Shown here: piece by piece, positions 3,001 to 6,000 of the stretch | Position numbering within the stretch: the stretch's first letter is position 1 | Layout of the letters: the number at the start of each line of letters is the position of its first letter | Assembly: GCA_964461715.1 (NCBI GenBank) | Contig: CAYWVR010000005.1 | Coordinates: 3,717-67,716 of the forward strand | Direction of reading: 5' to 3' | From: an uncultured Anaerolineales bacterium | GTDB taxonomy: Bacteria; Planctomycetota; Phycisphaerae; FEN-1346 | Length of the DNA stretch: 64,000 nucleotides | Position numbers: made by a program

Positions 3001-6000
3001 GACAATCGGCCACTCGGCGTTCCTGGACCGTTTTCGCCGCACCGTGGCCGAGACGACGCCGGGCTGCATCCTGTTGGAGCGGCCCGACGTGCTGAGGCGG
3101 CTGATCGTGGAGGAGGGGGCTCGGGATTCGACGGGGCGCGGCACGGGGCTGGCCGAGTTGGAGGCCCGGGCCTGCTGCGCCAGCCATCACATGCCCGGCC
3201 ACGAGATTCCGGAGGCGCACTGGTTCTACCGCTTCGCGAAGCGGCACTGGTACTTCGGGTTCGGCGGGTACGCTTGAGCGGCAAGCACAAGGAGACGCGA
3301 TGAGCGATCCTGCGACCGGCTACGACTCGGGCGCTTGCTGCGGGCCCGGACGGCGTCCCCGTCGTCCGCCCCAGAAGGGCATCCCTCAGACACGGCCGGA
3401 GCGCGACCGCATCCGCGGCGCCGTCCGCGACCGCGTCCGCAGCCGACGGCTCGTGCCGCCGCTGTCATTCAACGAGCTCTTTGATCTCACCGAGGACGTC
3501 GCCGCGGCGGCCGAGTGCCCGGCCGACGTGCGGAAGTGGGTGGCGGTCCTCGCGAACAACGAGGCGTGGCAGGAGCGTTTGGCGGGCATCCCGTACGAGC
3601 GGCGGCTCCTTTTGCTGCCCCAGTGCCTTCGCGACCCCGAGCAGTGCCCCGGTGTGGTGGACGAGCTGGGCCTCGTGTGCCAAGGATGCGGGCGGTGCCT
3701 GATCGATACGTTCCGCCGGGAGGCCCTCCGCCTCGGCTACGCGGTCCTCGTCAGCGAAGGTACGGCCGTGGTCATGACGCTGATCCGCACGGGCCAGATC
3801 GAGGGTGTTGTGGGCGTCAGCTGCATGTCTTCGCTGGAGAAGGTCTTTCCGCTGATGGAGGCGGCGGCGGTGCCCGCGGTGGCTGTGCCGCTCCTCTATG
3901 ACGGATGCGCCGAGACGAGCGTGGACGCGGATTGGGTGCTGAGGGCCATCCGGCTCTCCTCCGACGCCGCCACCGCCCGCATGGACCTCGACGCCCTGCG
4001 GACCGAGGTGGAGGCGTGGTTCCGGGCCGACGTGCTCGCGGCGCTGATGGGCCCTGCCGACGATCCCACCAGCCGCATCGCCCGCGACTGGCTCCTCGTG
4101 GGCGGCAAGCGGTGGCGGCCATTCCTGGTGGCGGGCGTTTACCGGGCCCTGGCGGACGATGCCGAGGCCCCTCTCCCCCCGACCGTGGCCCGCATCGCCG
4201 TGGCCGTCGAGTGCTTCCACAAGGCCAGCCTCGTCCACGACGACATCGAGGACCAGGACGCCCTCCGCTACGGGGAGCAGACGCTGCACGAGCGGCACGG
4301 GGTGCCTATGGCCCTGAACGTGGGCGATTTCCTCATCGGCGAGGGATACCGCCTCATCGCCGAGGCCGACTTGGCGGACGCGCGGCGGGGCGAGATTCTG
4401 GCGGCGGCCGTGACGGGCCACCGCGCGCTTTGCGTCGGGCAGGGGGCCGAGCTGGCCTGGACCGCCGACCCGCAGCCCCTGGCCCCCGAGGCCGTCCTCG
4501 ACATCTTCCATAAGAAGACCGCCCCGGCCTTCGCCGTGGCCCTGCGGATGGGAGCCGTCTGCGCCGGGGCCGACGGTGCCGTCGCCGACGTCCTCGACCG
4601 CTATAGCGAGGCCCTCGGCGTGGCCTACCAGGTCCGCGACGACCTGGACGACTTCGTCCGAGCCGGGGCGGAGAGCGATGCGTGGGCCCTGCGGCCCTCG
4701 ATCGTCCTGGCCCTGGCGTATGAGCGGGCCGAGGGCGAGGCCCGCGACCTCCTGGACGCCCTCTGGCGGGGCAAGGCCGACCCGGCATCCGTCGCCGCGC
4801 GGCTCGGGGCCGTCCTGGAAGACCTCCAGGTCGAGCGTGCTGCCCGGACGCTTCTGGACCGAACGACCCGCGAGGCGATCCGGTCGCTCCAGCCGCTTGC
4901 CAGCCCCGACCTCAAGGGCCTCCTCCGCCGCGTTCTGACGAAGATCTTCGGGCCCATCGACGAAAGGGCATCGATCCGTGACCTTGAGGCTCGAGATGAT
5001 CCGGGCCGCGCAGTCGGCGCCGAGCCTGCTGCGTGACGCCGCCGGGCGGGTCGCCTCGTTCCTCCGGTCCCGCCGGGCCCCCGGGCGCGGGTTCACGGGG
5101 CGCGACGGCCGGCCCGACCTCTACTACACCGTCTTCGGGGCCGAGGGACTGATCATCCTCGGGGAACCCCTTGTGGACGACCTCCCCGCTTACCTGGCCG
5201 GTTTCGGCGACGGCGAGGGCCTGGATTTCGTCCACTTGGCATGCCTGGCCCGGGCGCGGGCGGACGCGGCCCCGGAGGGCTTCGACGAGGCGTCCCGCCG
5301 GGCCGTGGCCGATCGCTTGGCTGCCTACCGGAGTGGCGACGGCGGATTCAGCCACCAGTCGGAGGCCCCCCGTGGGACGGCCTACGGGTGCTTTCTGGGT
5401 GTCGGGGCTTACGAGGACCTGGGCGTGGACCTGCCGGACCCGGAGGGGCCGGTCCGCTGCCTGGCGGGCCTGGAAGCCCCGGGCGGCGGGTGGTCGAACG
5501 AGCCCGGCGGGCGGGCGGCCCTGACGCCCGCGACGGCTGCCGCGGTGACGTTGCTCGCGCACTTGGGTCGGCCCATGCCGGAAGGGGCCGCGGGGTGGCT
5601 CCTGGGCCAGACGGCCGAGACCGGGGGGTTCCGGGCCTCCCCGGACGTGCCCGTCGCGGACCTTCTCTCGACGGCCACGTCCCTCCACGCGCTGGTGGCA
5701 GCGGGGGCGGACCCGGGGCCCGTGCGCGAGGGGTGTCTGAGGCTGCTGGATACCCTCTGGAGCGAGGAAGAAGGGGCCTTCCGTGGCCACGCCTTCGACG
5801 CAGTCGTCGACTGCGAGTACACGTGGTACGGGCTCCTGGCGCTCGGGCACCTGGCCGCGTGACGGGGTCGGCGCTTGCCCGGGTTCGCGGCACAACCTAC
5901 GATGAAGAGATGAAGAGCGGGCATCCGGGCGAGGAGGACCCATGCATCTTGCCTTGCGGAGGCCGATCCTGGCGGCGTGCTTGATCGTGGTTGCGTCCGC

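Follow-up and report, generated by a model that had tools for sequence, protein, structure and literature searches.

Which product would a bacterium make with a ferredoxin-like protein, a radical SAM (rSAM) enzyme, a trans-isoprenyl diphosphate synthase (IDS) fused to a DUF116 domain, and a stand-alone toroid protein encoded one after the other? The question is raised by a locus in a 64-kb stretch of DNA, which as a whole is called here the window. An earlier note had read these genes, together with a downstream GT4 glycosyltransferase gene, as likely to make an unusual polyprenyl lipid, cyclised or modified, or a prenylated cofactor. From the comparisons presented below, positions 1062 to 5862 probably hold the four core genes of a terpenoid-lipid pathway that is widespread and still uncharacterised. 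This core usually stands beside an SHC-like cyclase and is best read as a ferredoxin-fed module making and modifying a non-squalene prenyl chain. A literature search found no functional study of DUF116, polyprenyl, rSAM, CobW, GcvH, and prenyltransferase-beta combinations.

The neighbours that had been described (rSAM enzyme, ferredoxin-like protein, and downstream GT4) were all present and had Pfam matches (Table 1). The genes form a compact operon, in which neighbours are separated by 5 or 22 nt or overlap by 4 or 59 nt: the first 4 nt of the ferredoxin-like gene overlap the stop of an upstream propeller gene, and the toroid gene shares 59 nt (GTG start) or 41 nt (ATG start) with the 3' end of the fusion gene. 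The latter overlap was kept in loci L002, L004, and L089, and suggests coupled translation of the two proteins, perhaps as partners in a complex. The toroid gene is followed after 79 nt by a gene for a propeller protein whose N-terminus, as read from the sequence, carries a lipoprotein-type signal (...VASAG/C). Beyond it, the block of GT4, LolD-like ATPase, and FtsX genes (7158-12504) has syntenic counterparts in L005 and in the Verrucomicrobia locus L004, and the block from 12559 to 19478 was syntenic with L004 by tblastn. The GT4, the LolD-like ABC ATPase, and the FtsX permease may form an export and decoration module. In the remainder of the 64-kb window, Pfam scans found no terpenoid genes.

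Table 1. Positions of the core genes, their domains, and the downstream genes in the window
Feature	Position (nt)	Strand	Details
Ferredoxin-like protein	1062-2078	+	338 aa; Pfam Fer4_10/Fer4_7
Radical SAM (rSAM) enzyme	2084-3277	+	397 aa; Pfam Radical_SAM E 7e-21
DUF116/trans-IDS fusion	3300-5036	+	578 aa; PF01976 + PF00348
DUF116 domain (residues 74-216)	3519-3947	+	Cysteine cluster C109...C133 at nt 3624-3698
IDS domain (residues 262-495)	4083-4784	+	DDIED 4239-4253, RYG 4266-4274, KKT 4512-4520, DDLDD 4638-4652
Stand-alone (alpha/alpha)6 toroid	4978-5862	+	294 aa from GTG 4978, or 288 aa from ATG 4996
BamB/PQQ-like beta-propeller	5942-7141	+	399 aa; Pfam Beta-prop_ACSF4 + PQQ_2; context, outside core
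GT4 glycosyltransferase	7158-8447	+	Pfam, NCBIfam
LolD-like ABC ATPase	8465-9169	+	Pfam, NCBIfam
Double-FtsX permease	9166-12504	+	1112 aa; Pfam, NCBIfam
PQQ-like propeller	12559-14439	+	Pfam, NCBIfam; gene call
NHL-like protein	about 14436-15455	+	Pfam, NCBIfam; gene call
Polyferredoxin	about 15694-16269	+	Pfam, NCBIfam; gene call
NapH-like membrane ferredoxin	about 16326-17717	+	Pfam, NCBIfam; gene call
PQQ-like propeller	17721-19478	+	Pfam, NCBIfam; gene call

Support for the general reading came from the neighbours of the core in other genomes. Among 51 loci of at least 15 kb from Acidobacteriota, Planctomycetota, Verrucomicrobiota, and Armatimonadota, the ferredoxin (Fer4), rSAM, fusion, and toroid genes occurred together and in that order in 27, which we call the clustered loci. 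An SHC-like cyclase accompanied them in 24, a GcvH-like protein in 24, and a CobW-like GTPase in 23; IscS, the GcvH-like protein, and the CobW-like GTPase usually preceded the four-gene module (at L004 their genes lie between the rSAM and ferredoxin genes), and the cyclase, a class II enzyme of 575-645 aa with a conserved DxDDT, lay downstream. The whole operon was present in the cultured Fimbriiglobus ruber. From their sequences the partner proteins look functional: 30 of the 32 cyclases beside the module kept DxDDT, 22 of 27 GcvH-like proteins had the lipoyl-lysine motif, and all 26 CobW-like proteins had GCFCC.

By taxa, size, and motif, not by a tree, the neighbouring cyclases match the SHC-like clade of the literature. 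The 2020 survey, where it deals with this clade, reports that the catalytic residues are kept and that the gene neighbourhood hints at a precursor that is not squalene (Santana-Molina et al. 2020, PMC7306690), and the clade was still uncharacterised in the corresponding part of a 2025 survey (Mol Biol Evol 2025, PMC12414744). Both present it as the main uncharacterised branch, whose substrate would help to decide how cyclase substrates evolved. In the same sections they discuss the cyclase only, and the rSAM, ferredoxin, DUF116-IDS, toroid, GcvH, CobW, and IscS partners are not described. Orthologues of the module lie directly upstream of cyclases that resemble this clade in their DxDDT motif and in their taxa, the PVC group and Acidobacteriota; the window differs in having no such cyclase within 64 kb. 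One SHC-like match labelled Bacteroidales was not accepted as evidence from the FCB group, as its contig encodes Planctomycete-type PSD and PSCyt domain proteins and looks mis-binned, and the cyclase is solitary.

In the 64-kb window, tblastn (E < 1e-5) detected no GcvH, CobW, IscS, or SHC-like genes elsewhere. In the closest relative, L005, an SHC-like cyclase gene is placed between the counterparts of the toroid and propeller genes. An assembly artefact was rejected as the cause of the missing cyclase, since in four other assemblies the toroid gene is likewise followed directly by the propeller gene without a cyclase. The proposal of a cyclised or modified polyprenyl lipid is supported by the synteny with a DxDDT class II cyclase (24 of 27 loci, four phyla), but the cyclase is absent here, so a cyclised product is not assured. 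The GT4 had also been placed in the pathway; the gene is indeed present downstream, but a GT4 relative lay near the module in only 4 of the 51 long loci, so that its link to the module is weak, and the joint link of GT4 and ABC export rests on three loci.

The fusion protein matched Pfam DUF116 over residues 74-216 (E 1.3e-29, 103 bits against a cut-off of 25) and polyprenyl_synt over residues 262-495 (E 5.7e-40, 137.5 bits against a cut-off of 27). Its motifs GGKRWRP (268-274), DDIED (first Asp-rich, 314-318), KKT (405-407), and DDLDD (second Asp-rich, 447-451) confirm, with the Pfam matches, the earlier description of both DDxxD motifs and the KKT of a trans-IDS joined to a Cys-containing DUF116-like domain. 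Both Asp-rich motifs were conserved in 120 aligned fusion homologues, and all homologues among the matches listed (120) had both domains, at 52-61% identity. The seven DUF116 cysteines (C109-x6-C116-x10-C127-x2-C130-x2-C133, plus C175 and C203) were invariant across the aligned homologues. An AlphaFold2 model of this domain (pLDDT 84) has four parallel strands and predicts a flavodoxin-like alpha/beta domain; searches against solved structures gave no match by sequence and none below E 0.02 by fold, with only weak Rossmann-like and B12-domain resemblance. For DUF116 (COG1852, arCOG02078) a flavodoxin fold, by HHpred, and an electron-transfer role had already been predicted, and a polyprenyl synthetase fusion, Psta_0175 of Pirellula staleyi, had been mentioned (Makarova et al. 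2015, PMC5898192). The archaeal and bacterial proteins share the Pfam family, the cysteine pattern including CxxCxxC, and the prediction of a flavodoxin-like fold (from HHpred there, from AlphaFold2 here). The archaeal proteins have two N-terminal transmembrane helices and lie near sulfite/nitrite reductase or ArsA-type ATPase genes (PMC5898192), whereas the bacterial fusion sits in a terpenoid operon and its N-terminus has, by eye, no hydrophobic stretch.

The best solved relatives of the IDS domain were FPP and GGPP synthases (E 1e-25), and it matched the NCBIfam FPP, GGPP, and IdsA models at E 1e-26 to 1e-29, below every equivalog cut-off. With short- and medium-chain trans-IDS enzymes (IspA; GGPP synthases PDB 1WY0, 3P8R) it shares the Asp-rich motifs, GGKRxRP, KT, and the FQ..DD region; it differs from them in its fusion to DUF116, in a conserved 80-residue C-terminal extension, in having RYG for RRG, and in lacking the GK...GK lysines. 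The RYG change was invariant in the 120 homologues aligned; GGKRWRP is kept, and in place of GK...GK(S/T)T the stretch that follows the second Asp-rich motif reads AGAESD...LRPS. Because of the RYG change and the lost lysines, the domain may not condense IPP in the usual way. Ahead of the first Asp-rich motif there are Ala and Ser at -5 and -4 and Phe at -8, and the chain-length region was invariant across phyla.

These features bear on the possibility that the fusion is an alternative squalene-type synthase, making FPP or GGPP and then coupling two of them reductively head to head, or removing the diphosphate, without the NADPH-dependent SQS or HpnCDE; the ferredoxin-like protein would give low-potential electrons, and the hydrocarbon would be the substrate of the SHC-like cyclase. 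The IDS part, whose fold is related to that of squalene synthase, is joined to a predicted Fe-S domain, ferredoxin genes adjoin, the usual IPP-binding residue is replaced in every homologue aligned, and the cyclase directly downstream in 24 of 27 loci is of squalene-cyclase size. In addition, a Bipolaricaulota cluster contains a stand-alone DUF116 gene with IspH, SHC, HpnH, and polyprenyl synthetase, and no squalene synthase is listed there. We nevertheless consider this alternative unlikely: the head-to-tail IDS motifs are kept, the nearest relatives are FPP/GGPP synthases rather than SQS or CrtM, Gemmataceae make squalene-derived lipids by known routes, and no role is left for the rSAM enzyme or the toroid. 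The non-squalene precursor suggested for the clade, in that part of the 2020 survey (PMC7306690), argues in the same direction.

The ferredoxin-like protein consists of an N-terminal domain of about 115 aa that belongs to an unknown family, a 2x[4Fe-4S] ferredoxin domain (residues 142-196) whose eight cysteines were conserved in 30 homologues, and a Cys-rich tail; in Acidobacteriota it is split into proteins of 117 and 297 aa. Its gene was directly upstream of the rSAM gene in 26 of the 27 clustered loci. The rSAM enzyme has CX3CX2C at residues 58-65, six further conserved cysteines (nine in all, at 58, 62, 65, 119, 177, 191, 269, 288, and 328), and a conserved, aromatic-rich C-terminal tail. 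The same 397-aa type occurred in all but one clustered locus, with orthologues at 50-69% identity; at L002 it was replaced by a B12-domain rSAM with weak MiaB/RimO similarity. The enzyme fell below the cut-off for every NCBIfam equivalog. Its identification as the adenosylhopane-forming HpnH was rejected, as TIGR03470 gave 44 bits against a cut-off of 225 and other rSAM models scored higher; it is no closer to HpnH than to peptide or cofactor maturases. A role in peptide (RiPP) maturation was also rejected, as the gaps of 5, 22, and 79 nt fit no precursor gene and there was no match to a SPASM or peptide-recognition domain.

The extra cysteines of the rSAM enzyme, a feature of sulfur-inserting rSAM enzymes, and the weak MiaB/RimO similarity of its replacement at L002 are what would be expected if the product were a sulfur-bearing or carrier-bound isoprenoid, with IscS giving sulfur, the GcvH-like protein carrying sulfur or an intermediate, the rSAM enzyme inserting it, and CobW loading metal. 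The presence of IscS, GcvH-like, and CobW-like genes inside the operon at most loci, and the conserved functional motifs of the latter two proteins, agree with such a scheme. The window and L005, however, keep the core with no IscS, GcvH, or CobW gene nearby, these three proteins might do no more than load the many cluster proteins with Fe-S or metal, and we know of no sulfur-bearing isoprenoid from these phyla; we regard the scheme as distinctly unlikely.

The toroid reading frame scored 26.3 bits against Pfam Prenyltrans, just short of the cut-off of 26.5. Its identity was settled by the match of the family profile to RabGGTase beta (E 1.5e-10), by a homologue that scores 45 bits, and by an AlphaFold2 model showing a full toroid (pLDDT 96). 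Gene callers choose ATG 4996, but the six extra residues gained from GTG 4978, MTLRLE, fit the family consensus MSxRLEM, so that 294 aa, the length given in the earlier note, is probably right. That note counted four repeats and suggested a cyclase fragment; the model has six helical hairpins, a complete monodomain (alpha/alpha)6 barrel. The family comprises 441 clusters at 50% identity (E <= 1e-30), its members among the matches listed (150) are all single proteins of 234-389 aa, and a scan of a one-genome-per-species collection gave 580 confirmed relatives in four or more phyla. Aromatic and acidic residues are invariant in the family, including the motif D272-x-E274-Y-T at the start of the last inner helix. 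The idea that the toroid was copied recently from part of the adjoining cyclase, as one of its domains, was rejected, since the toroid profile gave only weak partial matches (up to 18 bits) to SHC-like proteins.

The closest structural matches of the toroid were the beta subunits of RabGGTase and GGTase-III (PDB 1DCE, 3DSS, 6J74), which share an (alpha/alpha)6 toroid of ~290-330 residues, GGF...D..YT repeats, and TM scores of 0.70-0.76 (0.73-0.76 for RabGGTase beta by Foldseek). As the IDS, which could make the prenyl donor, is encoded by the overlapping gene, the toroid might be a beta-subunit-like enzyme that moves the prenyl group to a cysteine of a protein or peptide. Identity to these subunits was, however, 15-17%, and in an HMM alignment of motifs, in which the repeat registers are ambiguous, the zinc ligands D238, C240, and H290 of RabGGTase beta corresponded to a kept D222, an invariant Leu224, and, in the following repeat, an invariant Tyr275; the sole cysteine close by, C273, was present in 48 of 58 sequences. 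No PPTA alpha-subunit repeats were found in Pfam scans of genes across the window or in the Pfam lists of related loci, the gaps in the core operon are too small for a precursor peptide, and the partner of the toroid in other genomes is a terpene cyclase and its pathway, not a protein substrate. Protein prenylation is thus very unlikely, and the earlier likening of the toroid to a protein-prenyltransferase beta subunit could not be upheld.

A DxDD motif, proposed as a feature to look for together with the zinc site, was not found either: there is no D.DD anywhere in the toroid sequence, and the DxDD position of SHC aligns with D222-L-L-S. The toroid resembles the monodomain cyclases MstE (PDB 6SBB) and the 342-347-aa myxobacterial enzymes (8PAJ, 8PAK) in being a single alpha/alpha barrel without a gamma domain (Foldseek E 2e-6 to 6e-5, TM 0.60-0.65). 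In the portion of the 2025 survey on the MstE group, MstE has a shortened DxD acid motif and acts on a prenylated aromatic compound, and BLAST hits for the group were filtered to a length of 300-400 aa (PMC12414744), a range above that of the toroid (288-294 aa). The toroid has its own invariant D272-x-E274 to set beside the DxD, and, with D222-L-L-S at the DxDD position, the acid would sit on a different helix.

The toroid gene stood alone, far from the other module genes, in roughly half of the 51 long loci, and most of these carry the label Verrucomicrobiaceae or Prosthecobacter. At 21 loci (Verrucomicrobiaceae, Prosthecobacter, Brevifollis, Verrucomicrobia) the toroid gene was divergently adjoined by a gene for a UbiE/MenG-type methyltransferase, which, with the NapH-like quinol-dehydrogenase-type protein of the window cluster and the prenylated aromatic substrate of MstE, might point to the synthesis or modification of an isoprenoid-quinone side chain, related to menaquinone. 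Only one group of close relatives shows the UbiE adjacency, and the surroundings there are a housekeeping neighbourhood, SMC included. In Pfam scans and the synteny survey, neither the window nor the clustered loci showed Men, Mqn, or UbiA-type genes, and L014, the UbiE-adjacent locus examined in full, had no Men or Mqn genes beside the toroid gene; placement in menaquinone or other quinone clusters, which the earlier note had named as contrary evidence to a new lipid pathway, did not go beyond this methyltransferase. Moreover, the IDS chain-length region is the same across phyla that differ in menaquinone tail length. A quinone pathway is in our judgement most improbable.

Dedicated pairing of an IDS with a class II cyclase is known from the sporulenol (HepST, YtpB, SqhC) and longestin (Lon22, Lon15) pathways, in which a pathway-specific IDS makes a head-to-tail polyprenyl chain for an SHC-family cyclase; longestin is glycosylated. 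The 2025 survey, where it treats these two pathways, counts Lon15 and SqhC in the SHC family (PMC12414744). The present module shares this pairing, but these pathways, from Bacillota and Actinomycetota, lack the rSAM, ferredoxin, DUF116, monodomain toroid, GcvH, CobW, and IscS.

We propose the following course for a ferredoxin-fed module acting on a non-squalene chain. The IDS domain would build or hold an all-trans prenyl diphosphate of ~C20 or longer, a length inferred from the Ala and Ser at -5 and -4 of the first Asp-rich motif and from the FPP/GGPP synthases as nearest relatives. DUF116 would carry one or two Fe-S clusters, its seven cysteines suiting one four-Cys electron-transfer cluster and one three-Cys cluster with an open iron site. 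The ferredoxin-like protein would feed it electrons for a redox reaction of the allylic diphosphate bound by the protein; the diphosphate group might, for example, be lost reductively, which would leave a hydrocarbon acceptable to a squalene-type cyclase. We give only a small chance to the specific form of this step in which the Fe-S domain reduces the allylic diphosphate in an IspH-like manner, by reductive elimination or coupling, within the IDS active site. The toroid would bind the chain in an aromatic-lined cavity and either hand it on or carry out a protonation or transfer step through D272-x-E274; it has neither the prenyltransferase zinc site nor the DxDD acid. The rSAM enzyme would modify the chain at the membrane surface, and the SHC-like cyclase, where present, would cyclise the product. 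For the present organism we would expect a product that either remains linear or is cyclised by an enzyme whose gene lies beyond the 64-kb window; the adjacent GT4 and ABC/FtsX proteins might afterwards glycosylate this product and export it. A simple lipid pathway does not explain the roles of the GcvH-like, CobW-like, and IscS proteins.

Hopanoids, sterols, and other cyclic terpenoid lipids shape membranes and are preserved as molecular fossils. The synteny shows that the SHC-like cyclase has fixed partners, namely the ferredoxin-like protein, the rSAM enzyme, the prenyl synthase fused to a predicted Fe-S domain, and the monodomain toroid, usually with GcvH-like, CobW-like, and IscS proteins. 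The open question of the SHC-like substrate can now be approached by expressing a defined set of eight genes. In the window, a natural variant, the cyclase is missing, which shows that the four core genes can exist by themselves; they therefore probably have a product of their own. Several hundred bacterial species from soil and water carry the module, among them the cultured Fimbriiglobus ruber and, from the published fusion, Pirellula staleyi (PMC5898192). If the IspH-like reduction by the fusion protein is true, the fusion would be a new kind of terpenoid enzyme, and squalene-type or regular polyprene hydrocarbons would have a third route, dependent on ferredoxin. In that case the fusion, the toroid, and the rSAM enzyme would supply the long-sought SHC-like substrate, and bacteria would be expected to make polycyclic lipids of a class so far unrecognised, which might serve as biomarkers.

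The four core genes lie in an unbroken run of plus-strand genes extending from position 4 to approximately 25.7 kb of the window (G+C ~70%) and are closely packed, with, in order, a 4-nt overlap, a 5-nt gap, a 22-nt gap, and a 59-nt overlap between the gene for the fusion of DUF116 with a trans-isoprenyl diphosphate synthase (IDS) and that for the toroid, a stand-alone (alpha/alpha)6 protein. The radical SAM (rSAM) enzyme has a CX3CX2C motif at residues 58–65 and six further conserved cysteines. The ferredoxin-like protein of the window is a fusion of proteins of ~117 aa and ~297 aa that are separate in Acidobacteriota (locus L002, 7162–8405) and Fimbriiglobus, and it carries a Cys/Asp/Gly-rich C-terminal tail (…GGGCACDEDAGCDCDG…GCDCGG) that its relatives lack.

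Features of the window discussed in the text (positions in the window unless given as residues)
Feature	Position	Strand	Remarks
BamB/PQQ-like propeller	4–1065	+	cut by window edge
Ferredoxin-like protein	1062–2078	+	338 aa
rSAM enzyme	2084–3277	+	397 aa
DUF116-IDS fusion	3300–5036	+	578 aa; Pfam DUF116 and polyprenyl_synt
IDS motifs of fusion	GGKRWRP 268–274; DDIED 314–318; KKT 405–407; DDLDD 447–451 (residues)		
Toroid	4978–5862	+	294 aa; Prenyltrans-superfamily profile and fold
Propeller-to-NapH block, 13.5 kb	5942–19478	+	syntenic with L004 (Verrucomicrobia) and L005 (closest relative)
NuoE/NuoF-like fusion and GltD/NuoG-like Fe-S flavoprotein	19480–23401	+	directly after cluster
Exosortase locus	39021–50276		unrelated to terpenoid finding

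When the window proteins and extra proteins of two related loci were placed on 51 loci of at least 15 kb, the gene order (IscS)–GcvH-like–CobW-like–ferredoxin-like–rSAM–fusion–toroid was found in 27, labelled Acidobacteriota, Planctomycetota, Verrucomicrobiota, and Armatimonadota; the cluster is co-inherited across phyla, and the full operon is present in the cultured Fimbriiglobus ruber (L089, 3124–11857). An SQHop_cyclase protein of 575–645 aa is encoded 3' of the toroid in 24 of these 27. The catalytic motifs of the partners are intact, with GGVPDxDDT kept in 30 of 32 neighbouring cyclases, the lipoyl-lysine motif in at least 22 of 27 GcvH-like proteins, and GCFCC in all 26 CobW-like proteins; to judge from sequence, these three partners look functional. 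All clustered loci but one have the 397-aa type of rSAM; at its usual position in the operon, L002 (8398–9990) encodes a 530-aa rSAM with a B12-binding-type domain and weak similarity to MiaB/RimO. The finding is genuine and goes beyond chance. Past the domain level no characterised family takes it in, no curated NCBIfam equivalog claims any core protein, and as a terpenoid gene cluster it is unusual in its set of enzymes. We consider it rather probable that the products of the four genes act as one module, fed by ferredoxin, in which a non-squalene prenyl chain is made, held, and modified; in most genomes an SHC-like enzyme would then cyclise this chain.

The toroid occurs alone in the other 24 of the 51 loci, labelled mostly Verrucomicrobiaceae or Prosthecobacter. 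In 21 loci (L014, 9065–10867, and 20 more; labelled Verrucomicrobiaceae, Prosthecobacter, Brevifollis, or Verrucomicrobia) a UbiE/MenG-like methyltransferase divergently adjoins the toroid, with SMC upstream. A quinone-related role, which this neighbour brings to mind, is the reading to which we give least credence.

The domain identities of the fusion are clear. Pfam DUF116 matched residues 74–216 (E 1.3e-29) and polyprenyl_synt residues 262–495 (E 5.7e-40), both far over the gathering score, and the DDxxD motifs and KKT described in the earlier note were all located (DDIED, DDLDD, and KKT). Both domains were present in 120 of the 120 relatives listed, at 52–61% identity, whose source labels include Planctomycetota, Acidobacteriota, Verrucomicrobia, Binatia, and Brocadiia. 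As modelled by AlphaFold2 (pLDDT 84), the DUF116 part begins with three helices, which lead into a four-stranded parallel alpha/beta domain. Five cysteines lie between strand 1 and the next element, in the loop, one follows strand 3, and one comes behind strand 4; all seven are invariant in aligned homologues, and a search of solved structures with this part gave no significant match. These cysteines would suffice for two clusters, one with four cysteine ligands and one with three; the latter would leave an iron site free, as is the case in IspH or IspG. Makarova et al. (2015; PMC5898192) devoted a single sentence to the fusion of DUF116 with polyprenyl synthetase, which some bacteria have, and predicted DUF116 to be a flavodoxin-like, metal-binding, electron-transfer domain.

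The nearest relatives of the IDS domain are FPP and GGPP synthases. Because Ala and Ser occupy positions −5 and −4 before DDIED, the usual short-chain block would be absent. In all aligned homologues RRG is changed to RYG, the following residues read GEQT instead of the usual GKPT, and the lysines of GK...GK(S/T)T after the second Asp-rich motif are replaced; these features normally serve in IPP or diphosphate binding. A conserved tail of 80 residues comes next. The domain should surely bind a prenyl diphosphate with Mg2+, and its second substrate may or may not be IPP.

The toroid scored 26.3 bits against Pfam Prenyltrans, just under the 26.5 cut-off. Nevertheless, it belongs to this superfamily, as indicated by profile matches, model, and superposition: the profile of its family (58 sequences) matched RabGGTase beta (E 1.5e-10), farnesyltransferase beta (E ~1e-8), drimenyl diphosphate synthase (E 4e-8), and squalene-hopene cyclase (E 7e-6), and its AlphaFold2 model (mean pLDDT 96) superimposed on RabGGTase and GGTase-III beta subunits with TM 0.70–0.76 and on monodomain class II cyclases with TM 0.60–0.65. 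Six helical hairpins in the model make up a complete (alpha/alpha)6 toroid; the 294-aa prenyltransferase-repeat protein of the earlier note is thus present, with six repeats in place of the four then counted, and is a whole domain and not a cyclase fragment. The GTG at 4978 is probably its true start, because many homologues exceed the ATG-started version by six N-terminal residues and the extra MTLRLE fits the family consensus MSxRLEM. Like the family of the fusion, that of the toroid is large and compact. An exhaustive search gave 441 clusters of relatives at 50% identity (E ≤ 1e-30), and each of the 150 listed is a stand-alone protein, with a length of 234–389 aa; a one-genome-per-species collection contained at least 580 confirmed relatives.

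The invariant residues of the toroid are mostly aromatic (Y43, Y44, F47, Y130, W201, F212, F262, Y275, and Y278) or else acidic or basic (D41, H80, D222, D272, and E274); R36, D77, R86, R112, D115, D141, H231, and H285 are near-invariant. In an in-register alignment, zinc ligand D238 of RabGGTase beta corresponds to D222, and ligands C240 and H290 correspond to invariant L224 and Y275, although the repeats make registers ambiguous. The sole cysteine near the would-be zinc site varies, being found in 48 of 58 sequences, and no alpha subunit is encoded near the gene. Within the ambiguity of the registers, we therefore rejected the toroid as a protein prenyltransferase, and with it the beta-subunit assignment suggested earlier; prenylation of a protein or peptide by the cluster seems very unlikely. 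A DxDD motif, the other signature envisaged, was not found, as D.DD is absent from the whole protein and D222-L-L-S takes the place of the squalene-hopene cyclase DxDD in the alignment (again with ambiguous registers). The last inner helix opens with invariant D272-x-E274-Y-T; MstE, a known monodomain cyclase, has a shortened DxD motif. With two of the zinc ligands replaced, no DxDD, and this invariant motif, the toroid would therefore have an active-site layout of its own kind, as far as the ambiguous registers allow.

The neighbouring cyclase scored 112 bits against the hopene-cyclase model (cut-off 431), and relatives of it occur in Fimbriiglobus ruber and other Gemmataceae. This matches the "SHC-like" clade. 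According to Santana-Molina et al. (2020; PMC7306690), catalytic residues are conserved in this clade and genomic context suggests precursors other than squalene. That the fusion-based module is instead a ferredoxin-dependent squalene-type synthase, which would also employ the ferredoxin-like partner, we regard as unlikely. A 2025 Mol Biol Evol survey (PMC12414744) lists the SHC-like clade as functionally uncharacterised, with members in the PVC and FCB groups, Spirochaetota, and Acidobacteriota, and reports that at the stem of the clade the SHC-type dimer surface has an unusual density of substitutions. Those substitutions and the conserved adjacency of the toroid (in L002, L004, and L089, the F. 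ruber locus) raise the idea that the toroid might replace the cyclase's homodimer partner. Outside the 2020 context supplement, we found no paper on the rSAM, ferredoxin, toroid, GcvH, CobW, or IscS partners or on functional tests. A solitary SHC-like cyclase lies on a contig labelled Bacteroidales (L088, JAIXLE010000044.1) that looks mis-binned because Planctomycete-type PSD and PSCyt domain proteins lie beside it; several other labels of toroid-locus MAGs (Anaerolineales, Chitinophaga pinensis, and Akkermansia muciniphila) look equally doubtful.

No IscS, GcvH, CobW, or cyclase gene was found in the window by tblastn (E < 1e-5), and Pfam scans across the rest of the window found no other terpenoid genes. 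A sulfur- or carrier-linked product, in which IscS and the lipoyl-type GcvH of the other loci would take part, appears quite unlikely. In L005 (60% identity), the cyclase gene lies exactly between the toroid and next propeller genes; this gap is 79 nt in the window. The missing cyclase is not an assembly error, because four other assemblies, from related sequencing runs, have the propeller gene directly 3' of the toroid gene.

Downstream of the core, the gene for a lipoprotein-type propeller comes first, then those for a GT4 glycosyltransferase, for a LolD-like ABC ATPase, and for a double-FtsX permease of 1112 aa. Next are two more propeller genes with genes for an NHL-like protein, a polyferredoxin, and a NapH-like membrane ferredoxin, and beyond these lie the NuoE/NuoF-like fusion and GltD/NuoG-like flavoprotein. 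The 13.5-kb propeller-to-NapH block, whose three BamB/PQQ-like beta-propellers include one with a lipoprotein signal, looks like a predicted periplasm-directed redox and export system; its propeller/GT4/ABC/FtsX/NapH genes are syntenic with L004, which also holds the terpenoid core, and block and core adjoin in only three loci, from two phyla. The NuoE/NuoF-like fusion contains thioredoxin-like 2Fe-2S, FMN, NADH_4Fe-4S, and ferredoxin domains; with its partner it has the look of an NAD(P)H:ferredoxin oxidoreductase module, a possible source of low-potential electrons. In the separate exosortase locus, an EpsH-type exosortase and a DUF3485 (EpsI-like) protein are encoded together with a Wza-like polysaccharide export protein and two further proteins, one a TPR protein of 1480 aa and the other of ParA/AAA_31 type with ~800 aa.

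For the proposed prenyl-chain module, we hold each single step with much less confidence than the whole. The IDS may make a chain of ~C20 or longer, on whose allylic diphosphate DUF116 would perform redox chemistry; the toroid may bind the chain or contribute a protonation step, the rSAM enzyme would carry out a lipid-directed step, and in most genomes the SHC-like enzyme would cyclise the modified chain, with possible glycosylation and export of the product by the GT4 and ABC/FtsX neighbours. The cluster bears directly on a question that specialists call open.
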